From Bauldia sp. (GTDB lineage Bacteria; Pseudomonadota; Alphaproteobacteria; Rhizobiales; Kaistiaceae): a stretch of DNA of 32,000 bases. The notes beneath the pieces are model-generated. The model made no database searches. It was not told the DNA's origin and worked only from the letters and a program-made list of their open reading frames with translations. The DNA lies in the NCBI GenBank assembly GCA_035548515.1, contig DASZSW010000026.1, forward strand, positions 131,900-163,899, in the 5' to 3' direction. Below, in pieces: positions 3,003 through 23,398 of the stretch (position 1 is its first letter; the number at the start of each line of letters is the position of its first letter). The translations under genes were made by a program, and so were the position numbers.

Positions 3003-3539
3003 GTGGTGACGCATCTGAATGGGGCTGGCGCCTTTCCCGAACTGGGGTCGGTGCGGCCGGATCATGCGGCGGCGGTGGCCGAGGCGCGGCGAATGGTCGA
3101 GGGGACGACGCTGTCGCAGCACGCTATCGCGCAGCAGCTTCGCGTTTCGGACAGCACCGTCTCGCTATGGAAGAAGCGGTGGGGATGGATGCGGCCGGAA
3201 GGGTCACCGGTGGCGCCGCCGGAGTTTGCGGGACGCGATACCGCGAAGGCGGCGGAGAAGCGGCGGGACGTGCTGGTCGGGCGCCTCTACCGCGTGTTTG
3301 ATCGGCAGCTGATGGATGTTGAATCGCGCGCGGCTGATGCCGTGGCGGTGACTGAGGAGAAAGATGCCCGCACTCTGGGCACGCTTGCACGGACGCTTGG
3401 AACGCTGATTGCGCTTGAAGCGGGAGGCGAGCGGGAGGACGGCGCACCGGCGGATGAACCGGAGCGATACGATCCCGATGAAGTCCGCGCGCGACTTGCG
3501 GCACGACTTGCTGGACTACGCGAAGAAGGAGACGATTGA
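3003..3539 (+). CDS. GTA g1-like protein (HTH, small-terminase-like position)
   Basis: First gene of the head cluster. TLSQHAIAQQLRVSDSTVSLWKKRW is an HTH-like segment. The start is uncertain (GTG 3003 or ATG 3093). The 3' end overlaps the terminase gene. Confidence 0.55.
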   Translation: MVTHLNGAGAFPELGSVRPDHAAAVAEARRMVEGTTLSQHAIAQQLRVSDSTVSLWKKRWGWMRPEGSPVAPPEFAGRDTAKAAEKRRDVLVGRLYRVFDRQLMDVESRAADAVAVTEEKDARTLGTLARTLGTLIALEAGGEREDGAPADEPERYDPDEVRARLAARLAGLREEGDD

Positions 3540-4803
3540 GGCGCGGCTGGCGACGCTCTCGCCGCGCGAGCGGGGCGAGCTTTCGCGGGCCTGGGATTTT
3601 CTGGCGCGGCGTGATCAATGGCCGCCCGAGGGCGACTGGCTAGTCTGGCTGCTGATGGGCGGACGCGGCTCGGGCAAGACGCGCACGGGCGCGGAGTGGG
3701 TGCGCGGCATGGCGCTCGGCCTTTGGCCGTTCGCCGACGCGCCGGTCGGGCGCATCGCGCTGGTTGGCGAGACGTTCGCAGACGTGCGTGAGGTGATGAT
3801 CGAGGGCGTGTCGGGTATCCTCGCGGTGCACGAGCGGCAGCGGCGGCCGACCTGGCTGCCGGCGCGGCGCATGATAGTGTGGGACAACGGCGCGCGGGCG
3901 CAGGCGTTTTCGTCGGAGGATCCGGAGTCGCTGCGCGGTCCGCAGTTTTCGGCGGCCTGGTCGGACGAGGCGGCGAAATGGAAACACGCCCAGGCGACGT
4001 GGGACATGCTGCAGTTCGGGCTGCGGCTGGGCGCGCGGCCGCGCCAGGTGGTGACCACGACGCCGCGGCCGGTACCGCTGATCCGGCGGCTGATGGAGGC
4101 GGCGGGAACGGTGGTGACGCGGTCGCGGACGGCCGACAACCGGGCGAACCTCGCGACGGGATTCCTGGCGCGCATGGCCGACCAGTATGGCGGCACGCGG
4201 CTGGGGCGGCAGGAGCTGGACGGCGAGCTGATCGAGGATCGCGCGGACGCGCTGTTCGTGCGCGACCAGATCGAGGCGGCGCGTGTCGCGGCGGCGCCGG
4301 AGATGCGGCGCGTGGTGGTGGCGGTCGACCCGCCGGCCTCGCGGCGCTCGGGCACGTGCGGGATCGTCGCGGCAGGATTGGGCAAGGACGGCTTCGGCTA
4401 TGTGCTCGCCGACGTTTCGGCGGCGGCGGCGCGGCCCACGGAATGGGCAGCTCGGGCGGTGGCGCTCTACCGGCGGCTCGGCGCCGACGCGCTGGTGGCG
4501 GAGGTGAACCAGGGCGGCGACATGGTGGCCGCCGTGATCCGCGAGGTCGACGCCGGCGTGCCGGTGAAGGAAGTACGGGCGACGCGCGGCAAGTACCTGC
4601 GCGCCGAGCCGGTGGCGGCCTTGTATGCGCAGGGACGTGTGCGCCATGCCGGCAAGTTCGCCGAGCTGGAAGACGAGATGGCGGATTTCGGATTGGACGG
4701 GCTGTCGGCGGGACGCTCGCCGGACCGGCTCGACGCGCTGGTGTGGGCGGTGACGGCGCTGATGCTGGGGGAGGGTGGGGAGCCGCGGATCGGGCGGGTC
4801 TAG
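3478..4803 (+). CDS. Phage/GTA terminase large subunit (RcGTA g2-like)
   Basis: Walker A motif LMGGRGSGKTRTGAEWV, preceded by W-x-F-x-ARRDQWPPEGDW as in GTA terminases. The ORF opens at 3409; ATG 3478 is chosen and the start is uncertain. Confidence 0.9.
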   Translation: MKSARDLRHDLLDYAKKETIEARLATLSPRERGELSRAWDFLARRDQWPPEGDWLVWLLMGGRGSGKTRTGAEWVRGMALGLWPFADAPVGRIALVGETFADVREVMIEGVSGILAVHERQRRPTWLPARRMIVWDNGARAQAFSSEDPESLRGPQFSAAWSDEAAKWKHAQATWDMLQFGLRLGARPRQVVTTTPRPVPLIRRLMEAAGTVVTRSRTADNRANLATGFLARMADQYGGTRLGRQELDGELIEDRADALFVRDQIEAARVAAAPEMRRVVVAVDPPASRRSGTCGIVAAGLGKDGFGYVLADVSAAAARPTEWAARAVALYRRLGADALVAEVNQGGDMVAAVIREVDAGVPVKEVRATRGKYLRAEPVAALYAQGRVRHAGKFAELEDEMADFGLDGLSAGRSPDRLDALVWAVTALMLGEGGEPRIGRV

Positions 4804-4887: not shown

Positions 4888-5127
4888 ATGGATATCGAGT
4901 TTGCGCGGCTTGCGATCCGGGCCGGGTTCAGCAGCGGACGCGAGCTGGAGACTTTGATTCACATCACGAAGGCGCACTGGGAGCCGGCGGCGCACAAGGA
5001 ATTCGCGATCGGGATTGCGCGTGCCACAGCGGAAATTCAAGCTGCGACGACGGAAAAAGCCGTCGCAGCATTCCCGGAGCTGGAAGCCGAGGTCGATGCC
5101 GCGGTAAACAAGTACGGGCGTTACTAG
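4888..5127 (+). CDS. Small hypothetical protein (79 aa)
   Basis: ATG preceded by gggagggcggg (a good SD). Ordinary amino-acid composition. No family recognised. Confidence 0.4.
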   Translation: MDIEFARLAIRAGFSSGRELETLIHITKAHWEPAAHKEFAIGIARATAEIQAATTEKAVAAFPELEAEVDAAVNKYGRY

Positions 5128-5153: not shown

Positions 5154-6137
5154 ATGCATTCGCGGCACGCGGCGCGGCTGGGGCGCGATATCTCGGCGAT
5201 CGGATTTGGCGCCTGGCAGATCGGCGGAAGCTGGGGCGAGGTTGCGGAGCATGACGCCGAGGCGGCGTTGGCCGCGGCGCTCGATGGCGGCGTGACGTTT
5301 GTCGATACGGCGGACGTGTACGGCGGCGGACGGTCGGAGGAGATCATCGGCCGCGTGTTGAAGCAGCGCGGCGGGCGGCGGCCGTTCGTCGCGACCAAGT
5401 GCGGGCGCGGCGGGACGAACAAGGCGGATTCGTACACGAAGGCGAACCTCGCCCAATGGGTGGAGGCGAGCCTGAAGCGGCTGCAGGTGGAGGCGCTGGA
5501 TCTCGTCCAGCTCCACTGCCCGCCGACGCAGGTCTATTACATGCCGGAGGTGTTCGGCGCGCTCGACGAGCTGGTCGTGGCGGGGAAGCTCCGCGCCTAC
5601 GGCGTCAGCGTCGAGAAGGTCGAGGAGGGACTGAAGGCGATCGAGTATCCGGGCGTTGCGAGCGTCCAGATCATCTACAACATCTTCCGCCAGCGACCGG
5701 CGCGGCTCTTCTTTCGCGAGGCGAAACGGCGGGGTGTTGCGGTGATCGCGCGCGTGCCGCTGTCGAGCGGGATGCTGACCGGCAAGCTGACGCGCGAGAC
5801 GAAGTTTGCGGAGGACGACCATCGCGACTTCAACCGCGAGGGCGAGTCGTTCGACAAGGGCGAGACGTTTTCCGGCGTGCCGTACGACGTCGGCCTCGAC
5901 GCGGTCGAGGAGCTGCGGCCGCTGGTGCCTGGCGGGGTGCCGATGGCGGCGTTCGCGCTCCGCTGGATATTGATGAACGACGCGGTGACGACGGTGATCC
6001 CGGGCGCGCGCAATGCCGCCCAGGCGAAGGGCAACGCGGCGGCCGACGACGTCGCGCCGCTGTCGGACAGGACGATGGCCGCGGTGGCGGAAGTTTACCA
6101 GCGGCGCATCGCGCCGTGGGTCGAGGCGCGGTGGTAG
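5154..6137 (+). CDS. Aldo/keto reductase family oxidoreductase
   Basis: MHSRHAARLGRDISAIGFGAWQIGG...VTFVDTADVYGGGRSEEIIGRVLK matches the AKR N-terminal signature. It is the last 327 codons of the 3879..6137 ORF-track entry; the ATG at 5154 is in frame. Confidence 0.9.
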   Translation: MHSRHAARLGRDISAIGFGAWQIGGSWGEVAEHDAEAALAAALDGGVTFVDTADVYGGGRSEEIIGRVLKQRGGRRPFVATKCGRGGTNKADSYTKANLAQWVEASLKRLQVEALDLVQLHCPPTQVYYMPEVFGALDELVVAGKLRAYGVSVEKVEEGLKAIEYPGVASVQIIYNIFRQRPARLFFREAKRRGVAVIARVPLSSGMLTGKLTRETKFAEDDHRDFNREGESFDKGETFSGVPYDVGLDAVEELRPLVPGGVPMAAFALRWILMNDAVTTVIPGARNAAQAKGNAAADDVAPLSDRTMAAVAEVYQRRIAPWVEARW

Positions 6138-6348: not shown

Positions 6349-7929
6349 ATGCGCATTCCATTTCTGGCGGCGCGCGGGAGCGCGGCGGACGACGTCGCGC
6401 GCCGTGAGCATGAGGCGAAGGCTTCGCGCGCCGGGCCGGTGATCGCGTGGCAGACGCAGCACCGCGCCGTGTGGACGCCGCGCGACTATGCGGCGCTGGC
6501 GCGCGAAGGGTTCGCCCGCAACGCGGTGGTCTATCGCTGCGTGCGCATGATCGCGGAGGCGACGGCGTCGGTGCCCTGGCTGCTCTACGAGGGCGAGGCG
6601 GAGCTGACGGAGCATCCGCTGCTGGCGCTGTTGGCGCGGCCGAACCGGCGGCAGGCCGGCGCGGATTTCCGCGAGTCGCTGGCCGGCTACCTGATGGTGG
6701 CGGGCAATGCGTACCTCGAAGCCGTGGATGTGGATGGCGCCGTGCGGGAACTGCACACGTTGCGGCCCGACCGCATGAAGGTGGTGCCGGGCAGCGACGG
6801 CTGGCCGGAGGCTTATGAGTACACCGCGGGCGGGCGCTCGGTGCGCTTCGCCGTGCCTGGCGAGGGCATGTCGCCGATCCTGCACCTTTCGCTGTTCCAT
6901 CCGCTCGACGATCACTACGGCTTCGCGCCGATGGACGCGGCGGCGGTGGCGCTCGACCTGCACAACGCTGCCGGCACCTGGAACAAGGCGCTGCTCGACA
7001 ATTCGGCGCGGCCATCCGGCGCGCTCATCTACCAGGCGAAGGACGGCGGCAATCTCTCCGCCGAGCAGTACGAACGGCTGAAGTCGGAACTGGAGACGGG
7101 CTTCACTGGCGCAGCGCGCGCCGGGCGGCCGCTGCTCTTGGAAGGCGGGCTCGACTGGAAGGCGATGGCGCTAACGCCCAAGGACATGGATTTCCTCGAG
7201 GCGAAGAACGGCGCCGCGCGCGAGATCGCGCTGGCCTTCGGCGTGCCGCCGATGCTGCTCGGCATCCCCGGCGACAACACCTACGCGAATTACAAGGAAG
7301 CCAACGCTGCGTTCTGGCGCGGCACGGTGCTGCCGCTGGCGGCGAAGATCGCGGGCGCGATCGGCGCGTGGCTGGCGCCGGCGTTCGGCGATGGGCTCAG
7401 GCTGTGGTTCGACGCGGACCAGGTCGAGGCGCTTGGCGCTGACCGCGAGGCGCTGTGGGCCCGCATCGCCGCGGCGGATTTCCTGACGCTGAACGAGAAG
7501 CGCGCGGCGGTTGGGTATGAGGCGCTCGCCGGCGGCGATGAGGTGAAGCGGGCGGATGCGGTGCACGCGCCGGAGCGCCGCTACAATCCGGACTGGGCCA
7601 GCCAGCCGCGTGCGCCGGCGGGCAGCGGTGAGGAAAGCGGGCGGTGGATCGACGCCGGGGTAGGTCGCAGAGATGAAGGCACGTCAGACGCGTCAGGCAC
7701 AGTGTCCGCCGCTACGCCAATTGTCGTTGCCGGCGGCTTTGAGCCTGGTCAGGAAAGCATGACGGTGCAGGATTTCGTGTCAGCATTCTGTAGAGCTGGC
7801 ATATACAGCGAGTTACCCGGACAATTCCTTGGGATGACCATTATCGACGTCATGGGCCTCGCCAAGTCTGGTGATGCCGCCGCTCGCACGTGTCTGAAGC
7901 TGCTCGGGCGCGATCGATTTCGAAAATAA
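6349..7929 (+). CDS. HK97-family phage/GTA portal protein (RcGTA g3-like) with a ~123-aa non-portal C-terminal extension
   Basis: ATG 6349 follows ggagag. The portal core runs from ...NAVVYRCVRMIAEATASVPW... through ...FLTLNEKRAAVGYEALAGGDEV (~400 aa). The ORF then continues to 7929 through a Pro/Gly linker and an AT-richer unrelated domain. Confidence 0.9.
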   Translation: MRIPFLAARGSAADDVARREHEAKASRAGPVIAWQTQHRAVWTPRDYAALAREGFARNAVVYRCVRMIAEATASVPWLLYEGEAELTEHPLLALLARPNRRQAGADFRESLAGYLMVAGNAYLEAVDVDGAVRELHTLRPDRMKVVPGSDGWPEAYEYTAGGRSVRFAVPGEGMSPILHLSLFHPLDDHYGFAPMDAAAVALDLHNAAGTWNKALLDNSARPSGALIYQAKDGGNLSAEQYERLKSELETGFTGAARAGRPLLLEGGLDWKAMALTPKDMDFLEAKNGAAREIALAFGVPPMLLGIPGDNTYANYKEANAAFWRGTVLPLAAKIAGAIGAWLAPAFGDGLRLWFDADQVEALGADREALWARIAAADFLTLNEKRAAVGYEALAGGDEVKRADAVHAPERRYNPDWASQPRAPAGSGEESGRWIDAGVGRRDEGTSDASGTVSAATPIVVAGGFEPGQESMTVQDFVSAFCRAGIYSELPGQFLGMTIIDVMGLAKSGDAAARTCLKLLGRDRFRK

Positions 7930-7943
7930 GGGGAGGAAAAAAT

Positions 7944-8186
7944 ATGACGCTAAACGGGATCAATGATCTCCTCGCCTTCGCCAATTTGCTGAGAGCAGCG
8001 AAAGTCGAATATCGTCTGGAGCACTCACGGCACGATGCGTTGACCATCCAGCTCTTCCTGATCGGCGCATTTATCGAGATCGACTTTTTCGATGACCACA
8101 TCGAGTACACTTTTTTCGAAGGAAGCGAGAGCGTACTGGACGATCAGGAACGGCTGTTTGCGCTGATCGACAACGCGAAGGGTTAG
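7944..8186 (+). CDS. Small acidic hypothetical protein (80 aa), an immunity-protein-like candidate
   Basis: ATG 7944 follows ggggagga. The gene starts 15 nt after the portal stop, is visibly AT-rich, and is acidic (DFFDDHIEYTFFEGSESVLDDQE). Confidence 0.55.
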   Translation: MTLNGINDLLAFANLLRAAKVEYRLEHSRHDALTIQLFLIGAFIEIDFFDDHIEYTFFEGSESVLDDQERLFALIDNAKG

Positions 8187-8196
8187 AACGAAACCC

Positions 8197-8424
8197 GCCG
8201 CTGACGGCGAAGATCGCGGGCGCGATCGGCGCCTGGCTGGCGCCGGCGTTCGGCGAGGGGCTCAGGCTGTGGTTCGACGCCGACCAGGTCGAGGCGCTTG
8301 GCGCTGACCGCGAGGCGCTGTGGGCCCGCATCGCCGCGGCGGATTTCCCGACGCTGAACGAGAAGCGCGCGGCGGTTGGGTATGAGGCGCTCGCCGGCGG
8401 CGATGAGGTGAAGCGGGCGGATGC
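8197..8424 (+). repeat. Second copy of the portal 3' end (matches 7332..7559)
   Basis: Manual base-by-base alignment gives 228 bp with 5 mismatches and no indels. Confidence 0.95.
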
Positions 8425-8692
8425 TGCGGCGTGGAAGTACAGCCCCGATCAGCCCCGCGTGCCGGCCGGGAGCCCGGAAGGCGGGCAGTGGACTGTTGGC
8501 GCGGAAGCACTCGCCGAAAATGATATTGGCCGCCTCGTAGCGGAGTTGCCGTGGTCCGGAGGCGGGAGAAAATGCGTTTACCGGTTTGACACGTTCAGTA
8601 TTTTGGTTGACGGACCGGTGAACTTTCGCTGCCAGGACTGGGTGCCCTGGTCGGCGGTGACGCACGGTCAAAGACTGAACGACAACTATTGA
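8198..8692 (+). other. Orphan module: start-less portal 3' fragment fused in frame to a different C-terminal domain
   Basis: The frame is open from the repeat (PLTAKIAGAIGAWLAPAFGEGLRLWFDADQVEAL...GGDEVKRADA) into new sequence (AAWKYSPDQPRVPAGSPEGGQWTVGAEALAENDIGRLVAELPWSGGGRKCVYRFDTFSILVDGPVNFRCQDW...). The only start-like codon is the internal GTG at 8408, which begins the ORF-track entry 8408..8692. Confidence 0.7.
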
Positions 8693-8703
8693 AAGGTCGC
8701 GTC

Positions 8704-9039
8704 ATGACGGACGGTTTGCTCATCGCGACGTTCACGCTGTCCGCGGCAGCAAAGCATGGCGTGGAGCGCGTCAGAGAACTCTATCTTGCACGTTTTCCCG
8801 ACAATCCGCCGGCCGTGGCATCCGTTGCATGGGGGTATGTCGAAGGAAGCGATCCGCTTTCCGGGAAGGTCATCGTTGGATTTTACCAGCAATCCCAGTT
8901 TGCTGAAATCGAACATGGCATACAGGAAGTGTCGGGCGTGCCGCTGATCTATTTCACGACCGAGCAGTTCCATCCGCTGTTCGACGGAAAGGTGTTGGAC
9001 TACGAGGATGGGCAGGGGTTTTTTCTGAGGGCGCCGTAG
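8704..9039 (+). CDS. Hypothetical protein (111 aa), an immunity-like candidate paired with the orphan C-terminal domain
   Basis: ATG 8704 lies 12 nt after the orphan ORF stop, with aaagg upstream. Ordinary composition. No family recognised. Confidence 0.5.
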   Translation: MTDGLLIATFTLSAAAKHGVERVRELYLARFPDNPPAVASVAWGYVEGSDPLSGKVIVGFYQQSQFAEIEHGIQEVSGVPLIYFTTEQFHPLFDGKVLDYEDGQGFFLRAP

Positions 9040-9059: not shown

Positions 9060-9222
9060 ATGCTGCTCGGCATTCCCGGCGACAACACCTGCGCCAACTA
9101 CAAGGAAGCCAACGCCGCCTTCTGGCGCGGCACGGTGCTTCCGCTGACGGCGAAGATCGCCGGCGCGATCGGCGCCTGGCTGGCGCCGGCGTTCGGCGAT
9201 GGCCTAGGCTGTGGGTTCGATG
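9060..9222 (+). repeat. Third, degenerate copy of the portal 3' region (matches ~7252..7412)
   Basis: Manual alignment shows about a dozen substitutions plus two 1-nt indels near the 3' end. It translates as MLLGIPGDNTCANYKEANAAFWRGTVLPLTAKIAGAIGAWLAPAFGDGL, against portal MLLGIPGDNTYANYKEANAAFWRGTVLPLAAKIAGAIGAWLAPAFGDGL. Confidence 0.9.
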
Positions 9223-9235
9223 ATGGGAACAGGAC

Positions 9236-9421
9236 TTGGACGACATCACGCGCACGATCAGCGAGCGCGGCGATCTTGCGCACCTGGTGCTCTTCCTTTG
9301 GGCGAGCGGGGCGAGCGGGTTGCTCGTGTGGGTGCTGAAGGAGCTCGCCGCTTCCAACCGGCGGTTCAACGACTTCGTTTCCGAGATCGCGCGGCTGAAC
9401 CGGTTTTTCGATCGGGATTAG
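9236..9421 (+). CDS. Small putative membrane protein (61 aa) at the position of RcGTA g3.5
   Basis: TTG start from the ORF track. It has a hydrophobic core (LAHLVLFLWASGASGLLVWVL) followed by an amphipathic tail. Assignment to the g3.5 family rests on position only. Confidence 0.3.
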   Translation: MDDITRTISERGDLAHLVLFLWASGASGLLVWVLKELAASNRRFNDFVSEIARLNRFFDRD

Positions 9422-9538: not shown

Positions 9539-9816
9539 TGACCGTTGGCGGGGTGACGACCTCGCGGGTTCTGGACCAAGGGAAACCTAGATGAAGCATC
9601 TCCTGGCGCGCTTTGGCGCGGGGCCGGGCGCGGATCATCGCGCCGTGTTTTCCGGATTTGCGCGGCGGCTGTCGCGCGTGATCGCGCTGAAGCGCGCCGC
9701 GCCGAAGGTGCGGGCGGTGGCGGGATGAATGCAACGCGAACTGCCTCACCAACGCTGACAGTGAAGTTGAGCCGGTGAAGCAAGCGATGCGCCGCTTCCC
9801 GGAAATTCGAGGTCAC

Positions 9817-10338
9817 ATGAAACACGAAACGAAATTCGCACGCGTGGCGCTCTCGAGCGTTGACGCGGACGGGACGTTTACCGGCTACGCGTCGCTGTTC
9901 GGCAAGACCGACCTTGGCCGCGACGTGGTGATGCCGGGTGCGTTCCGCGCTTCGCTGGCGAAGCGTGGAGCGGGCGGCGTGAAGATGCTGTTCCAGCATG
10001 ATCCCAACCAGCCGATCGGCGTGTGGACGGATATCCGCGAGGACAGCCAGGGGCTGTTCGTCAAGGGGCGGCTGACGGCCGACGTGGCTCGCGCACGCGA
10101 GGTGCTGGCGCTGATGCGCGCCGGCGCGCTCGACGGCTTGTCGATTGGCTATCGGACGGTGCGCGGCAAGACGGACGCCAAGACCGGCGTACGGCGGCTA
10201 ATGGAAGTCGACCTGTGGGAGATTTCCGTCGTGACGTTCCCGATGCAGCCCGAGGCGCGCGTGTCGTCGGTGAAGGCGCTGCAGCTCGCAGCTCTCATTC
10301 GCCGGGCGACGGCGATGCTGCGGGACGCGACCCGCTAG
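9817..10338 (+). CDS. HK97-family prohead protease (RcGTA g4-like)
   Basis: FTGYASLFGKTDLGRDVVMPGAF...MLFQHDPNQPIG...LDGLSIGY...WEISVVTFP is typical of the S78 prohead protease. ATG 9817 follows gaggt; GTG 9775 and ATG 9787 are alternative starts. Confidence 0.9.
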   Translation: MKHETKFARVALSSVDADGTFTGYASLFGKTDLGRDVVMPGAFRASLAKRGAGGVKMLFQHDPNQPIGVWTDIREDSQGLFVKGRLTADVARAREVLALMRAGALDGLSIGYRTVRGKTDAKTGVRRLMEVDLWEISVVTFPMQPEARVSSVKALQLAALIRRATAMLRDATR

Positions 10339-19800: not shown

Positions 19801-20727
19801 GTGCTTCTCGACCTGCCGCTGCTTACCGGGAGCGAGCCCGGATATGCGCCTCGGGTTGCCGTGTTCGCCGCGCCGTGGCCCGGCGCGATCGCACTTTCGG
19901 TCGGAACCGCCGACACCGGCTACGTGCCGCGACAGGCGATCGAACGGCGTGCGGTGATGGGCGAGCTTACGTCGGAACTGGCGCCGGGACCGGTTGCGCG
20001 CTGGGACCGGGCGGCCTCGGTCACAGTTCGGCTTTACGGCGGTGCGCTGGCGGGCGCGCCCGAACTTTCGGTGCTCAACGGCGCCAACGTCGCCGCGATT
20101 GGCTCAAGCGAGACCGGATACGAGGTCGTGCAGTTCAGCGCTGCCACGCTGATCGACACGCGGACCTGGCGGTTGGAAGGCCTGCTACGCGGACAGGCCG
20201 GAACGGGAGACATCGCGGCAGCAGGCCATGACGCCGGTGCACGATTTGTGCTGCTCGATCGCGCCGTCGTCCCGCTGTCGTTATCGGAGGCGGAGGCCGG
20301 GCTTGGGCTGACGCTGCGCTGTGGTGCGGCGGGAGCGCCGTACGATCCCGATGTATTCGCCGACGTGACGATTACGGCCGCCCGTCGCGGTCTGCGCTGC
20401 CTGGCGCCGGTGCATGCGCGGGCGCATCGCGATGAAGGCACTGGTGACGTGACGTTGTCCTGGATACGGCAGACGCGCATCGGCGGCGATGCTTGGGAGC
20501 CGGTCGAGGTGCCGCTTGGCGAGACGAGCGAGGCGTATTCCGTTGCCATTGGCGATGGCATGACGACCTTCCGCACGGTGACGGCGGCTTCGCCGTCACT
20601 ACTTTATCCGGCCGCCGACCAGCTTGCGGACTTCGGCGCGCTGCCGGACGAAATCACTATCGCAATCAGCCAGATAAGCCCGACCGAGGGACCGGGTTCT
20701 GGCGCATTTTTTGCGCTCAATGTCTGA
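16831..20727 (+). CDS. Large host-specificity/baseplate protein with a GTA TIM-barrel-like domain (RcGTA g15-like)
   Basis: GTG 16831 overlaps the g14 TAG. The N-terminus has a glycine-zipper (GSLFGPLGTIVGRAVGGLAGYAIDQ). Also present are RIPQLSFEV and WFTEAGCPAIDKGPNQPNVF. The protein is ~1298 aa. Confidence 0.9.
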   Translation: MATLVLQAAGAAIGSLFGPLGTIVGRAVGGLAGYAIDQSLFGEHRTIEGPRLADLTVQTSREGAPIPRLYGRVRISGQVIWATRFEETVSDVGEGGKGGGSGTTLRTYAYFANFAVGLCEGPIARIGRVWADGKPFDLSTVTCRIYRGDAAQDVDSLIEAKQGDAPAYRDTAMIVFERLPLENFGNRIPQLSFEVIRPVDGIETAVRAVSMIPGSTEFGYDPEPVTSTITPGSSTTVNRHVDGVRTDWQASVDELQAVCANAGRVGLVTAWFGNDLRAGECTLKPAVVDRTTVTSPYTWSAAGMTRDTARLVSTFESKAAFGGTPADASLVRAIRDLNERDIKVTFYPFIMMDVPPGNGRDDPYGGAEQAAYPWRGSMTLSVAPGLPGSPDKTTAAADEVAAFVGTAAVDDFHLSGDSVVYTGPDEWSFRRFILHYAWLCKAAGGVDAFLIGSELRGLSTVRSAASTYPFVTALVALADDVKGILGGATTVTYGADWSEYFGHHPDDGSGDVFFHLDPLWASAAVGCVGIDNYMPLSDWRDGSEHLDAADWDNGRDAAYLRSNIAAGEGYDWYYASDADRAVQVRTPITDGGGGKPWVFRYKDLVGWWSNRHFNRPGGVESGTHTAWVPQSKPIWFTEAGCPAIDKGPNQPNVFYDAKSSASALPYFSNGLRDDLVQRRYIAATLAYWNPDAPDFDDAANPESSAYAGRMVDHAAIHLWTWDARPYPAFPLYTDVWSDGGNWDRGHWLTGRLGALTAESLAAAILADYGITDADIGDLDGVVDGFLIGEVTSARGALEPLAQLLAFEGHESGDRFAVTRRGRAPKLDFTGADLVEDKDKPVISIRRAQETELPAEIGIGFSDPLADYRPTSVSSRRLVGGSRRSVSTDTGAVLSHAVAGGLADTMLQDLWAGRESIALALPQRTLALEPADVCTLDIDGDVRTILVTRIEDAGLRRIEARTIEPDILAPVPAASRVVAPPVAVSASRPEVVLLDLPLLTGSEPGYAPRVAVFAAPWPGAIALSVGTADTGYVPRQAIERRAVMGELTSELAPGPVARWDRAASVTVRLYGGALAGAPELSVLNGANVAAIGSSETGYEVVQFSAATLIDTRTWRLEGLLRGQAGTGDIAAAGHDAGARFVLLDRAVVPLSLSEAEAGLGLTLRCGAAGAPYDPDVFADVTITAARRGLRCLAPVHARAHRDEGTGDVTLSWIRQTRIGGDAWEPVEVPLGETSEAYSVAIGDGMTTFRTVTAASPSLLYPAADQLADFGALPDEITIAISQISPTEGPGSGAFFALNV

Positions 20728-23398
20728 TCCTTTGGCGACGAATAACCTGGCGCTTCCGTATATCGCGGCAGCCCAGGCGCAGAAGCACGTCACGCACAAC
20801 GAGGCGCTGCGGAAGCTGGACACGCTGGTGCAGCTGGCGGTCCTCGACTCCATGCTGACGACACCACCCGGCTCGCCGGCCGAAGGCGACCGCTACATCG
20901 TGGCGGCATCGGCGACTGGCGACTGGGCCGATCACGACGCCGAGGTCGCGACCTGGGTGGACGGGCTGTGGGAATTCGCCATGCCCGGCGAGGGGTGGCT
21001 GGCTTTCGACCGCGCGGCCGAGGCGATCCTCGTTTTCCTGAGCGGCGCGTGGGCGCCGGCGGCTGCGGCTCCGTCCGGCGCGCTGGGCATGCTCGGCGTC
21101 AACACGACCGCGGATACCACCAACCGGCTTGCGGTGCGCTCCGAGGCGGCGCTGTTCACCGCGGTGGAAGCCGCCGACGGCGGCAGCGGCGACATCCGCG
21201 TCGCTCTCAACAAGGAGAGCGACGCGGATACGGCATCGCTCGTGCTCCAGAGCGGTTGGTCGGGGCGCGCTGAGATCGGGCTCGCCGGCGACACCGATCT
21301 GGTAGTCAAGGTTTCTGCCGACGGCAGCAGCTGGATCGAGGCGATACGGATCGACAAGGATACGGGCCTTGCGGCGATCCTGTACGACAACGCCGTCTCT
21401 GGGCTTGGCGCGACGACGGTCCAGGATGCGATCGACGAAGTCGCCGCCGGTGGTGGTGGCGGCGGCAGCGCGGTGGTCAGCGTATTCGGCCGCACCGGCG
21501 CGGTGGCTGCCACGAGCGGCGACTACGCCGCCAGCGATGTCGACAATGACAGCGGTGTGTCCGGCGCGAGCGTCAAGGATGCGCTCGACGCGCTGGCAAG
21601 CGCAAAACAGGCCGTGGATGCCGATCTCACCGCCATAGCGGCGCTGTCACCAACCAACGACGACGTCATCCAGCGCAAGGCCGGCGCCTGGACGAACCGG
21701 ACGATGGCTCAGGTCAAGACCGACCTGGCGCTGACGAAGGGCGACGTCGGGCTCGGCTCCGTCACTAACGACGCGCAGCTCAAGGCGGCGTCCAATCTCT
21801 CCGATCTCGGCAGCGCGTCGACGGCCCGCACCAACCTCGGTGTTGCGATCGGGACCGACGTGCAGGCGTACGACGCCGATCTTGCGGCGATCGCGGGACT
21901 GTCGCCGTCGAACGACGACGTCATCCAGCGCAAGGCTGGTACCTGGACCAATCGCACGATGGCGCAGGTGAAGACGGACCTTGCGCTGACGAAGAGCGAC
22001 GTTGGCCTCGGCTCCGTCACTAACGACGCGCAGCTCAAGGCGGCGTCCAATCTCTCCGATCTCGGTAGCGCGTCGACGGCCCGCACGAATCTCGGCCTGG
22101 GCGACTCGGCAACGAAAAACACCGGCACGACGACAGGCACCGTTGCGACCGGCGACGACAGCCGCATTACCGGTGCGGCGCAGAAGGCGTCGAACCTATC
22201 GGACCTCGCCAACGCCGCCACGGCGTTCGGCAATATCAAGCAGGCGGCCGACACGAGCACGACCGGTGTGGTGGAGCTCGCGACGGTAGCCGAGGCGGGG
22301 ACCGGCACCGATACGGTACGCGCCGTGACGCCGGCCGGCCTGTTCCCGGCGCAGGCGTCCGTGGCGTCGGCATCGACGTGCGACATCGGCGCGGCAGCTT
22401 CGTCCCAGGTGACGATCAGCGGTACGACGACGATCACCGCCTTCGACAATGTCGCCGCGGGGATCGTGCGCGAGGGCGTCTTCGAGGGCGCGCTGACGCT
22501 GACCCACAATGCGACCAGCCTGAAGCTGCCCGGTGGCGCGAGCATCACGACCGCCACGAACGATCGGTTCCGCGCGCTTTCGCTGGGATCGGGCAACTGG
22601 ATCGTGCTCGCCTATCAGCGCGCGGATGGCACCGCGATCGCAGGCGGCTCGGGGACCAGCGTGCCGATTGGCACGGTAGTGCCGTACGCCGGCATCACCG
22701 CGCCGGCGAACTATCTCTTCTGCTACGGCCAGAACGTCAGCCGCTCGACGTATGCGACGCTGTTCGCAGCGCTGCGTGTCTCGGCGACCGTCACGATCAC
22801 GATCGCGTCGCCGGGTGTCGTTTCGTGGACTGGCCATCCGCTCAAGGTCAACGACCCCGTGGTCTTCCGTACGACGGGCGCGCTGCCGACGGGCATCACC
22901 GCCGGCACGGTCTACTACGTCATTTCGGCGGGGTATGGCTCGAACAGCTTCCGCATCTCGGCGACGGTCAGCGGCTCGGCGGTCAACACGTCCGGATCAC
23001 AGTCGGGCACCCACACCGGCGTTTACGCCCCGTATGGCGACGGTGACGGATCGACGACGTTTGGCGTCCCCGATCTGCGCGGCCGCGTTGTGGCCGGCCG
23101 CGACGATATGGGAGGCACCAGCGCTAATCGGCTCGTCGGCTCGGCGACTGGCTCGCTTGACGGCGATGTTCTGGGCAAGACCGGCGGCGAGGAGACGCAC
23201 CAGCTGACGACCGGCGAACTGGCGACACACACGCACAGTGTGCCGACGTCGTTTGGCACCGGCGGCGATTCGGCCAATCCGGGCCCCGGTAACGGCGGTG
23301 GATCGTCTGCGACAAGCGGATCGTCCGGCAGCAATACGGCGCACAACACCGTCCAGCCGACGATGATCCTCAACTACATCATCTATGCGGGAGCGTAA
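20720..23398 (+). CDS. Tail fibre protein: DUF2793 N-terminus, repeat-containing shaft, phage tail-collar C-terminus
   Basis: LALPYIAAAQAQKHVTHNEALRKLD marks DUF2793. The shaft contains FGRTGAV-type fibre repeats. The collar domain is marked by TFGVPDLRGRVVAG...GGEETHQLTTGELATHTHS...HNTVQPTMILNYIIYAG. The gene overlaps g15 by 8 nt. Confidence 0.85.
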   Translation: MSDPLATNNLALPYIAAAQAQKHVTHNEALRKLDTLVQLAVLDSMLTTPPGSPAEGDRYIVAASATGDWADHDAEVATWVDGLWEFAMPGEGWLAFDRAAEAILVFLSGAWAPAAAAPSGALGMLGVNTTADTTNRLAVRSEAALFTAVEAADGGSGDIRVALNKESDADTASLVLQSGWSGRAEIGLAGDTDLVVKVSADGSSWIEAIRIDKDTGLAAILYDNAVSGLGATTVQDAIDEVAAGGGGGGSAVVSVFGRTGAVAATSGDYAASDVDNDSGVSGASVKDALDALASAKQAVDADLTAIAALSPTNDDVIQRKAGAWTNRTMAQVKTDLALTKGDVGLGSVTNDAQLKAASNLSDLGSASTARTNLGVAIGTDVQAYDADLAAIAGLSPSNDDVIQRKAGTWTNRTMAQVKTDLALTKSDVGLGSVTNDAQLKAASNLSDLGSASTARTNLGLGDSATKNTGTTTGTVATGDDSRITGAAQKASNLSDLANAATAFGNIKQAADTSTTGVVELATVAEAGTGTDTVRAVTPAGLFPAQASVASASTCDIGAAASSQVTISGTTTITAFDNVAAGIVREGVFEGALTLTHNATSLKLPGGASITTATNDRFRALSLGSGNWIVLAYQRADGTAIAGGSGTSVPIGTVVPYAGITAPANYLFCYGQNVSRSTYATLFAALRVSATVTITIASPGVVSWTGHPLKVNDPVVFRTTGALPTGITAGTVYYVISAGYGSNSFRISATVSGSAVNTSGSQSGTHTGVYAPYGDGDGSTTFGVPDLRGRVVAGRDDMGGTSANRLVGSATGSLDGDVLGKTGGEETHQLTTGELATHTHSVPTSFGTGGDSANPGPGNGGGSSATSGSSGSNTAHNTVQPTMILNYIIYAGA
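21617..22096 (+). repeat. In-frame tandem duplication (255-bp period, 85 aa) inside the tail fibre gene
   Basis: D-A-DL-AIA-LSP-NDDVIQRKAG-WTNRTMAQVKTDLALTK-DVGLGSVTNDAQLKAASNLSDLGSASTARTNLG occurs twice (21617.. and 21872..). It includes a long identical nucleotide run ggctccgtcactaacgacgcgcagctcaaggcggcgtccaatctctccgatctcgg. Confidence 0.9.

Follow-up and report, generated by a model that had tools for sequence, protein, structure and literature searches.

Positions 8197 to 9039 of the window, the 32,000-nucleotide stretch of Bauldia sp. DNA analysed here as a whole, probably (we put the probability near 0.7) form an orphan toxin-immunity cassette. It would belong to a polymorphic-toxin locus that has as its base the portal gene of a gene transfer agent (GTA), a domesticated phage-like particle, and would have been displaced when the tip 1 cassette was acquired. 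In this segment a second variable tip, tip 2, is fused to a repeated portal end as a probable toxin tip, and a probable antidote gene, ORF2, accompanies it. GTAs are usually viewed as altruistic DNA-donation devices, and it is an open question why cells maintain a system that kills its producers. The arrangement described below suggests that GTA particles, besides donating DNA, may be equipped with weapons that can be swapped.

The sequence comes from a metagenome-assembled genome (MAG). The domain set and the flanks of the cluster in the window identified it as an RcGTA-type gene transfer agent. Terminase, portal, S78 protease, capsid, DUF2460, Gp84_N/BR0599, NlpC/P60 and GTA_TIM domains were all found, and by its genes alone the head-tail module, including the last four of these, is collinear as in the RcGTA type. 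The flanks are cellular, with a two-component system and cytochrome c maturation genes, and a domain scan of them found no phage replication, integration or lysis genes. A prophage was ruled out by the GTA-specific domains and the cellular flanks. The features discussed are listed in Table 1.

Table 1. Features of the portal-protease interval in the window.
Feature	Positions	Strand	Remarks
Expressed GTA portal gene, 526 aa	6349..7929	+	Single ORF; HK97-type portal domain and C-terminal tip 1
Repeat copy 1, portal 3' region, residues 329-404	7332..7559	+	Homology arm common with the orphan
Tip 1 junction motif YNPDWASQPRAPAGSGEESGRW	7582..7647	+	Regex scan of the window
Tip 1 variable region, candidate toxin 1	7648..7926	+	GC down to about 53-60%
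ORF1, 80 aa, candidate immunity gene 1	7944..8186	+	Strong RBS GGGGAGG; GC about 51-53%
Repeat copy 2, orphan portal 3' fragment	8197..8424	+	98% identical to 7332-7559; no start codon
Tip 2, candidate silent toxin 2	8425..8692	+	88 codons to TGA; core a predicted small β-barrel of about 55 aa
Orphan junction motif YSPDQPRVPAGSPEGGQW	8438..8491	+	Motif scan; motif profile
ORF2, 111 aa, candidate cognate immunity gene 2	8704..9039	+	ATG 8704; orphan immunity candidate
Repeat copy 3, older displaced portal 3' fragment	9060..9220	+	89% to 7252-7412
61-aa conserved ORF homologue	9236..9421	+	73-89% identical to portal-protease ORFs of L090, L094/L095, L089
Prohead serine protease	9775..10338	+	Pfam Peptidase_S78, 126 bits; context, candidate processing enzyme

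The expressed portal was matched by Pfam Phage_portal over residues 60-388 (307 bits) and by TIGR01537 portal_HK97 over residues 52-395, and is 58-80% identical to Hyphomicrobiales GTA portals. Its C-terminal tip 1, of about 130 residues, is preceded by the junction motif YxPxQPRxPxGxxxGG(Q/R)W, and a small low-GC gene follows. The GC content drops from about 70% to about 52% across the tips and their partner genes. Searches of Pfam, NCBIfam, PHROG and PDB sequences returned no family for tip 1 or for ORF1, and no tip 1 homologue was present among the 96 fetched loci.

The sequence-only reading had proposed that about 228 bp of the portal recur nearly unchanged downstream, and this was confirmed. 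The first two copies align over 228 nt with 5 mismatches, an identity (98%) far above chance, leaving perfectly identical blocks of 7, 28, 23, 23, 67 and 75 nt. The homology stops at the point where tip 1 and tip 2 diverge, and copy 2 still gave a weak Pfam Phage_portal match (profile positions 263-320). As had been stated, two of the substitutions are silent (A340 and A356) and three replace residues (A331T, D348E and L379P). Portal residue 379 is Leu in 81 of 81 aligned relatives while the orphan carries Pro, so the portal part of the orphan shows relaxed constraint. Where all three copies overlap, copy 2 and copy 3 agree at two of the three differing positions; there the expressed portal, not the orphan, has the odd allele. 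Judged from this alignment, the orphan has kept ancestral alleles at those two positions, and L379P is degenerative. The view that the fragment has diverged only slightly thus agrees with the overall identity, but conceals changes of these two different kinds.

Open from 8096, the orphan frame includes 76 portal codons in the frame of the portal gene (about 70 had been counted), leads directly into the 88-residue tip and terminates at the TGA at 8690-8692. That it has no start at its 5' end was also confirmed, the sole ATG, GTG or TTG before the tip being the GTG at 8408. Tip 2 is presumably untranslatable because it lacks a start codon. It might alternatively be translated alone as an independently expressed small toxin, for instance from this in-frame GTG, which would give a 94-aa product; stand-alone tip2-family genes do exist, directly after portals in L083 and L094 and elsewhere in L088 and L084-L087. 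However, every stand-alone form has a leader of 35-90 residues before the motif, compared with 10 residues in the GTG 8408 product, and the surroundings of this GTG are identical to the internal portal sequence at 7543, with no distinct ribosome-binding site (RBS). We give independent expression little credence, and regard tip 2 as the silent part of the orphan cassette.

The lack of a start codon and the L379P change at an invariant residue would also suit inert debris, that is, a leftover of a displaced portal end in which tip 2 and ORF2 are inactive and the repeat is eventually lost. Copy 3 illustrates the later decay that this would entail, and the toxin parts of relatives are often broken, by an in-frame stop in L085, a truncation in L039 and a frameshift in L093. 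However, the state of tip 2 and ORF2 themselves argues against it. The family alignments of tip 2 (A2 and A3) have 10 invariant residues, and tip 2 retains all 10 together with its native C-terminus; its divergence from its homologues is not greater than that of ORF2. The stops and frameshifts that would mark a duplication in simple decay were therefore not seen in the tip. ORF2 is full length, and conforms to its alignment at every one of the 15 invariant and 7 nearly invariant columns. It starts after a gap of 11 nt from the tip 2 stop, one nucleotide less than had been reported, with a Shine-Dalgarno-like AAAGG element 7 nt upstream; the alternative start TTG 8689 would give 116 aa. The AlphaFold2 (AF2) model of ORF2 was very confident, with a pLDDT of 90.9, and that of the tip 2 core, a predicted small β-barrel, reached 85-88. 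Furthermore, tandem arrays of ORF2 homologues persist in L084 and L087, where the toxins are broken, and this is the pattern expected from selection on orphan immunity genes. Inert debris is thus an unlikely account, and we favour a displaced cassette whose immunity gene may still be in use. A crude scan found no promoter-like site for ORF2 expression outside GTA-producing cells.

Homology and structure searches placed tip 2 and ORF2 in a pair that is conserved elsewhere, and linked them to no known family or fold. Tip 2 had no match in Pfam, NCBIfam, PHROG, PDB sequences, or solved or viral predicted folds, and its profile found nothing in viral contigs; ORF2 matched no known family, PDB sequence, or solved or viral predicted fold. 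A resemblance of the string (R/K)(R/K)Y[NSH]PD to the J-domain (E about 0.5) was judged coincidental. At 10 or more other sites, a tip2-family gene has a homologue of ORF2, with 35-64% identity, behind it. Where toxin and partner are separated, the spacers measured 13-25 nt in the seven cases shown and mostly contained Shine-Dalgarno-like elements; in L090 the ORF2 homologue overlaps the toxin stop. The divergences of tip 2 and ORF2 are correlated (Spearman rho 0.75, p 0.013), so that by synteny the tip2 family has the small covarying downstream partner gene of a polymorphic toxin. In searches that included one metagenome scan for tip2 contexts, the pair was found only inside or beside GTA head modules, and the domain has three N-terminal contexts, namely portal-linked, behind a helix leader and behind an RWxRPDA leader. 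Simple tandem duplication followed by divergence was rejected as the origin of the two units, since tip 1/ORF1 and tip 2/ORF2 are alike only in the motif and the latter has its own family elsewhere.

Assigning toxicity and immunity rests on context, because the tips and the ORFs match no toxin or immunity family, PDB sequence or fold. The tips might accordingly be something else, such as lineage-specific accessory domains of the portal (for DNA retention, anti-defence or head completion), with the ORFs as chaperones or assembly partners, and the motif does also occur in polyvalent proteins with anti-defence domains such as Acb1. However, the same slot behind the same motif holds recognised toxin families in some of the related GTA head modules that were compared. 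In L018 it is occupied by the CdiA-CT domain PF18431 (RNAse_A_bac, 53 bits), which is also present in L069 and L087, and in L024 by a deaminase tip that is followed by a PF14430 Imm1 gene. Altogether 25 motif-bearing genes were found in 21 of 80 such modules, including an RNase A toxin in an isolate of Nitrobacter winogradskyi. Portals that are 58-80% identical thus have tips unrelated to one another (tip 1, tip 2, RNase A, deaminase and others), as expected of polymorphic toxins. Such tip diversity on a conserved scaffold, together with covarying partners, low GC and orphan arrays, is the polymorphic-toxin signature (PMC3482391). A non-toxic role is, in our estimate, even a shade less probable than independent expression of tip 2, and toxin tips with cognate immunity genes remain the preferred reading. 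The core of tip 2 comprises only about 55 residues, a size that was counted against a toxin.

The profile of the junction motif matched 5052 protein clusters. The motif lies at the module boundaries of phage polyvalent effector proteins with ART-PolyVal, Zeta toxin and Acb1 domains, and in giant polyvalent proteins it is repeated 2-10 times between effector domains. We looked for parallels among phage portal extensions and rejected them; the closest portals with a match past residue 400 (H3 and H4) have acidic or glycine tails only, with a MuF gene downstream and no junction motif. In the literature searched, with subscription-only papers outside its scope, we found no description of the motif as a packaging or processing signal, and none of GTA-borne polymorphic toxins or of a system like the one in the window.

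The array downstream of ORF2 retains traces of an earlier event. Copy 3, which was matched by Pfam Phage_portal at profile positions 236-309, has a disturbed internal frame and a truncated 3' end. The small ORF after it is visibly homologous to ORFs at 9083-9271 in L012 and 9469-9654 in L008. A conserved 61-aa ORF between portal and protease occupies what we take to be the position of orf3.5 in RcGTA, and by this homology the ORF at 9236-9421 marks the original end of the portal locus. Seven of the 80 relatives (L002, L005, L008, L010, L012, L024 and L039) likewise have displaced portal 3' fragments downstream of their cassettes. Portal matches extending to residue 475 in L001 and L006 were spurious, as both portals end normally. 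The sequence-only reading had taken the locus for a silent cassette, and had regarded the portal homology as what such a cassette needs in order to be recombined onto the expressed gene. It had not recognised how much the tip/ORF pairs resemble polymorphic toxin/immunity cassettes. The start-less portal fragment with its alternative tip and small ORF was upheld, but not the idea that the sequence has been kept for switching. Because of the fragment at 9060-9220 and the displaced fragments in the seven relatives, the 228-bp homology is better read as a by-product of acquisition.

The possibility that the ORF is never joined to a portal in any genome was also addressed by the relatives. Tip2-family domains stand directly behind full portals, and in L090 the full portal continues in frame, across one TAG, into such a domain; next come a homologue of ORF2, a displaced piece of portal and the small conserved ORF. 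With this intervening stop in L090 and the stand-alone tip2-family genes in L083 and L094, no uninterrupted ORF joining a portal to a tip2-family domain was found in other genomes. The same comparisons bear on whether the array could be an assembly artefact, in which portal 3' ends from two strain variants were joined in tandem. The source is a MAG, and a 228-bp repeat can mislead short-read assemblers. However, strain variants should produce a bubble, not a tandem, and the junction between ORF1 and the fragment (8187-8197) has only about 4-7 nt in common with the portal, which is insufficient for a k-mer misjoin. Displaced fragments also occur in independent assemblies (the seven above and L090), on contigs that in some cases span 0.15-0.6 Mb. 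We consider an artefact highly improbable and treat the array as genuine.

The array would be the record of two successive cassette acquisitions. Incoming DNA carrying a portal 3' end, a tip and a partner gene would recombine on its left through portal homology and be joined illegitimately on its right, so that each acquisition shifted the previous portal 3' end downstream. ORF2, with its own RBS, might supply immunity against the tip2-type toxins of neighbours. Switching of the orphan onto the expressed portal by recombination is possible; no recombinant or exchanged allele was seen. RecA recombination at the 228-bp repeats would delete 865 bp, comprising tip 1 and ORF1, and in silico the product would be a 492-aa portal-tip2 protein. 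Because of the orphan's L379P at an invariant residue, a clean portal would be expected only from crossovers in the last 75 bp.

The toxicity, immunity and delivery of the tips and partner genes are our inferences from this context. The tips would travel inside GTA heads, since the portal C-terminus faces the capsid interior, and would be freed into recipient cells. A tip fused to the portal would need cleavage to leave the head. RcGTA ejects its DNA into the periplasm and not into the cytoplasm (PMC7296036), which counts against the proposed delivery. We tentatively extend the proposal to Hyphomicrobiales GTAs in general, as an idea more plausible than probable, in which these particles are armed. 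The toxins, either portal fusions or proteins with short leader tags, would have their genes at three or four hotspots of the head module; they would be loaded into the capsid, cleaved at YxPxQPRxPxGxxxGG(Q/R)W and injected alongside the DNA. Non-kin would be killed or inhibited, and kin with matching immunity genes spared. Orphan cassettes like that at 8197-9039 would serve as a reservoir for changing weapons, and GTA transfer would spread the cassettes. The junction motif could then mark effectors delivered by capsids in general for packaging or processing.

If this is true, GTAs would gain a second role from toxin/immunity cassettes and orphan reserves, which would lie in the head modules of about a quarter of the relatives sampled (21 of 80), and their part in kin discrimination or interference competition would provide a direct fitness rationale. 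The portal protein would be a new scaffold in polymorphic-toxin biology. Attention is also drawn to the junction motif, which occurs in over 5000 protein clusters, giant phage polyvalent effectors among them, and may be a processing or packaging signal. Existing isolates, for example Nitrobacter winogradskyi and Afipia, allow the idea of armed GTAs to be tested.

In gene order and domain set, the window matches the RcGTA head-tail cluster (Bardy et al. 2020, PMC7296036). However, the RcGTA literature consulted describes no portal tip, toxin/immunity genes in the head module or repeated portal ends. In the sequential displacement reported for type VI secretion system (T6SS) effector-immunity modules in Vibrio cholerae (PMC5361080), new cassettes displace old ones downstream and immunity arrays remain, as in the window; the delivery machine is different, and the displaced unit in the window retains part of the structural gene along with an intact tip. 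Polyvalent proteins and portal-effector fusions (Iyer et al. 2017, PMC5512222) also bear effectors on portal or MuF proteins that are predicted to be packaged and injected. Each polyvalent protein, encoded by a phage or conjugative element, has two to fifteen effector domains, whereas the window has one tip per protein, so that the motif alone is common to both; term searches of that paper found no mention of it. The cognate partner genes and orphan cassettes of the window follow polymorphic-toxin logic and not a multi-effector anti-defence logic.

The MuF toxins of temperate phages, for which capsid co-injection has been proposed as the means of delivery (Jamet et al. 2017, PMC5576092; Zhang et al. 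2012, PMC3482391), are closer. Like the window, they have variable C-terminal toxins on a head-internal, portal-associated scaffold, encoded in a DNA-packaging module with small putative immunity ORFs next to them. In the window, however, the toxin is on the portal itself or on short leaders, and the host element is a GTA and not a temperate phage. Pfam, which covers the MuF domains PF04233 and PF06152, detected Phage_portal alone on the portal-tip protein and no domain on the leaders of stand-alone toxins, and the word "orphan" is absent from the main text of the MuF paper (PMC5576092).

The nearest counterparts of the displaced cassette itself are the orphan modules of Rhs, in which an orphan toxin is activated by recombination in Salmonella (Koskiniemi et al. 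2014, PMC3967940), and of CdiA (Poole et al. 2011, as cited in PMC5576092). The window differs from these in having a GTA portal as scaffold instead of an Rhs/YD-repeat shell or a CdiA filament, the boundary motif YxPxQPRxPxGxxxGG(Q/R)W instead of PxxxxDPxGL or VENN, and a homology arm of only 228 bp. Nonetheless, it has their general layout. A 5'-truncated fragment, devoid of initiation signals and of the delivery region, lies downstream of the main gene; it retains homology to the conserved region abutting the variable C-terminal tip, and has a small partner gene of its own linked to it. In both, recombination with the main gene would yield an expressed fusion and delete the resident tip.

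The orphan module lies in a window whose gene content identifies it as a gene transfer agent (GTA) cluster of the type of the reference RcGTA. Besides the terminase and the portal (see the table), the cluster encodes an S78 prohead protease, the major capsid protein, connector and head-completion proteins, tail completion and tube proteins, and the GTA-specific DUF2460, Gp84_N/BR0599, NlpC/P60 and GTA_TIM 'megatron' proteins. It is flanked by cellular genes (an HTH regulator, a two-component system and cytochrome c maturation genes), and flank annotation revealed no integration or replication genes in its surroundings. In one-genome-per-species data, the closest portals were 58-80% identical, all from Hyphomicrobiales.

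A repeat search found the 3' region of the portal gene three times in the window. Copies 1 and 2 differ at five sites, two silent and three causing replacements (A331T, D348E and L379P), which bore out the count in the sequence-only reading. Copy 2 follows the portal reading frame. This frame is open from 8096, holds GTG 8408 as the sole potential start ahead of the tip, and runs on into an 88-residue C-terminal tip (tip 2) that stops at 8690-8692, confirming that a start-less portal fragment is joined to a tip and followed by an ORF. The fragment, put earlier at about 70 portal codons, has 76, and the partner gene (ORF2) is indeed present, 11 nt rather than 12 nt past the tip 2 stop. The orphan module is real. 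A short GC-rich hairpin (CCGCCG-CTGA-CGGCGG-like) occupies 8194-8211, exactly at the junction of the orphan portal fragment with the end of ORF1, the small partner gene of the expressed portal's own tip (tip 1); a terminator scan scored it on the minus strand only.

Portal repeats and associated genes in the window
Feature	Position	Strand	Remarks
Large terminase	3409-4803		GTA cluster
HK97-type portal	6349-7929	+	GTA cluster
Copy 1	7332-7559	+	inside expressed portal gene
Copy 2 (orphan)	8197-8424	+	228 nt, 98%
Copy 3	9060-9220	+	161 nt, 89% to 7252-7412
ORF2	8704 (ATG) to 9039	+	AAAGG element upstream

About 130 residues follow the portal domain of the window's portal, which ends near residue 395; they start with YNPDWASQPRAPAGSGEESGRW, and the orphan tip starts with YSPDQPRVPAGSPEGGQW. 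Most of 80 related portals end near residue 400. Five extend further, four of them with the same junction motif, YxPxQPRxPxGxxxGG(Q/R)W. The extension at locus L018 is a bacterial CdiA-CT RNase A domain (PF18431, 53 bits), and that at L031 is of this type by visible sequence similarity to L018. At L024, a variant motif (FNPHHDDLGRF) precedes a deaminase and then a PF14430 Imm1 gene. The extensions at L039 and L058 contain domains without assignment, with small low-GC ORFs downstream. In the closest relatives (L002, L008 and L012), the toxin is a separate gene beginning directly past the portal stop. Its product combines a helical leader with the same motif and ends in a C-terminal 'GYDxHHIVE' domain; the next gene encodes a DUF2019 protein. 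A regex survey located 25 motif-bearing genes, distributed over 21 of the 80 loci. All of them lie on the cluster strand, at recurring positions: after the portal, in the protease-capsid interval, 3' of the capsid gene and, in one case, upstream of the portal. Among them is a 225-aa RNase A toxin of an isolate, Nitrobacter winogradskyi NBRC 14297. In the window's GC profile, both tip-partner pairs stood at about 52%, against about 70% around them. The polymorphic toxin signature of Zhang et al. (PMC3482391) consists of interchangeable C-terminal domains on a conserved scaffold, a small partner gene next to them and a foreign base composition. Because a conserved scaffold, swappable tips, adjacent small genes and low GC occur jointly here, the portal tips and their partner genes appear to carry this signature.

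In one group of stand-alone GTA-embedded toxins, the N-terminal leader contains tandem 'RW(L/M)RPDAxR(W/F)' repeats ahead of the junction motif (L030 11194-12072, L044, L048, L051, L055, L061, L069 and L079; proteins P0004 and P0005). Others have an amphipathic 'RLKWLAAAxRFExAMxRHD' helix in its place. These leaders are possibly capsid-targeting or portal-binding.

Tip 2 and ORF2 recur as a gene pair. Two small proteins (P0001 and P0002), 63-67% identical to tip 2, consist of the tip 2 core preceded by a helical leader and the motif, and each gene has an ORF2 homologue (62-64% identity) 12-15 nt downstream. A pair of this type at L083 begins 4 nt inside the stop of the GTA portal gene. Relatives of tip 2 are few. 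ORF2 itself has a 100% identical match, a hypothetical protein from a Bauldia sp. MAG. Further modules, traced through ORF2 homologues (P0009-P0021), lie between the capsid and connector genes of Pseudolabrys and metagenomic GTA clusters; their toxins have a different leader (M.xIHPAALEHExRRWMRPDAHRF). Metagenome and IMG/VR scans added three contexts: a module 1.4 kb upstream of the portal (L088/L089), a stand-alone tip 2-family gene directly 3' of the portal (L094/L095), and a full-length portal that continues in frame, across one TAG, into ERRYNSNWPSQPRVPMGSPDGGQW and a tip 2-family core (L090). Downstream of the L090 tip, an ORF2 homologue is followed by a displaced portal fragment and the conserved small ORF, and then by the protease and capsid genes.

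The TAG, at 552-554 of L090 (metagenome contig Ga0315553_10017919), stands alone between the full-length portal and the toxin (…NNVAGAD*ERRYNSNWPSQPRVPMG…). It could be either a toxin-disarming nonsense mutation or a read-through candidate; low-level read-through would place the tip on only a few portal subunits.

Across ten pairs, which are not independent, tip identity and partner identity to the window copies were correlated (Spearman 0.75, p 0.013). The window's tip 2 retains all ten family-invariant residues and the native C-terminus (...THGQxLNDN), and its divergence from homologues is no greater than that of ORF2. The AlphaFold model of tip 2 is a small beta-barrel with a core pLDDT of 85-88; that of ORF2 is an alpha/beta domain predicted with confidence, at pLDDT 90.9. 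Neither model matched solved or viral predicted folds and neither protein was recognised by any family library, so the assignment of tip 2 as a toxin and ORF2 as an immunity protein is drawn from context. In the capsid-connector interval at L084 (1-2617) and L087 (4375-6219), two or three ORF2-family paralogues stand in tandem, with tip 2-family toxins that are truncated, leaderless or frameshifted interspersed among them; these arrays resemble immunity islands whose toxins are decaying.

At present tip 2 would be silent. ORF2, a candidate orphan immunity gene, has an RBS of its own. The longest perfectly identical blocks shared by the repeats measure 67 and 75 bp. A recombination event joining the repeats would excise 865 bp and give an in silico product of 492 aa, a portal-tip 2 protein. 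A crossover upstream of 8349 would also bring L379P into an invariant portal position. Activation of a Salmonella Rhs orphan is a documented precedent for a recombinational switch (PMC3967940). The silent cassette proposed in the sequence-only reading is structurally apt but unproven; the probable toxin/immunity nature of the modules had been missed.

The repeats also bear on the origin of the array. Additional portal 3' fragments occur downstream of the cassettes at L002, L005, L008, L010, L012, L024, L039 and also L090, typically just ahead of the conserved small ORF or the protease, and this site is the original portal end. The L039 fragment extends into the beginning of the motif before ending abruptly. 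Copy 3 adjoins the window's homologue of the small ORF (9236-9421), before which it is truncated; it is the most diverged copy, and its internal frame disturbance is a compensated 1-nt deletion/insertion. Within the stretch common to all copies, two of the three differences between copies 1 and 2 are variants common to copies 2 and 3, and at both of them the odd allele belongs to the currently expressed portal 3' end. The left junction of the orphan has just a few bases in common with the portal. The array is most simply explained by two rounds of cassette acquisition. In each, homologous recombination would have been anchored in the portal 3' region, an illegitimate join would have closed the event, and the previous portal 3' end would have been displaced. 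The same logic has been proposed for Rhs/CdiA orphans and for T6SS effector-immunity arrays. Given this displacement history, the 228-bp homology would be primarily an acquisition footprint, and incidentally what a recombinational switch requires.

Several side features of the cluster were noted. A complete aldo/keto reductase gene (5154-6137, +; Pfam Aldo_ket_red, 225 bits) lies between the terminase and the portal, a cellular gene within the head module in a 1.5-kb gap missing from the canonical layout. The 79-aa ORF at 4888-5127 (+) belongs to a small family recurring at cassette hotspots of related GTA clusters (L073, L035, L045, L012, L033, L047 twice, and L052). This ORF, which shares 33% identity with the one behind the ORF2 homologue of L090, may be another orphan immunity gene. 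Upstream of the cluster, at 487-672 and 933-1118, three direct-repeat families lie side by side, with lengths of 59, 40 and 84 nt, 80-97% identity and a period of 446-447 nt. A 233-nt tandem-like internal repeat (21608-21840 and 21863-22095; 86%) within the 895-aa DUF2793/tail-collar ORF (20711-23398), 3' of the GTA_TIM gene, looks like a repeated domain of a fibre-like protein.

Toxin delivery by the GTA is the weakest link in reading these clusters as armed. In its favor, the crown of the portal points into the capsid (PMC7296036), and the cassettes are confined to the head module. Against it, RcGTA releases DNA into the periplasm (PMC7296036), a portal-fused tip would need proteolytic release, for which the adjacent S78 protease is a candidate enzyme, and immunity genes would have to be expressed in non-producing recipients as well; a crude scan for promoter-like sites detected none able to drive ORF2 in cells that make no GTA. 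Also in favor of delivery, a motif profile search found the junction motif in 5052 protein clusters. The top matches (P0029-P0034 among them) are 1000-4000-aa proteins with 2-10 copies each, in the form (K/R)(Y/F)xPxQPRxPxGxxxGG(Q/R/E)(W/F), parting GNAT, NUDIX, ART-PolyVal, ADP-ribosyltransferase, Zeta-toxin and Acb1 domains. They are the 'polyvalent' effectors of Iyer et al., who predicted them to be packaged and injected (PMC5512222). No solved structure contains the motif.

Our literature search turned up no paper that connects GTAs with polymorphic toxins, immunity proteins or the junction motif, and none naming the motif. The wider pattern of probable GTA-borne toxin cassettes suggested by the orphan module merits experimental follow-up. 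MuF polymorphic toxins (PMC5576092), portal-effector fusions in phages (PMC5512222) and orphan cassettes (PMC3967940) were already known; what appears new here is polymorphic-toxin logic, orphan cassette included, on a GTA portal.
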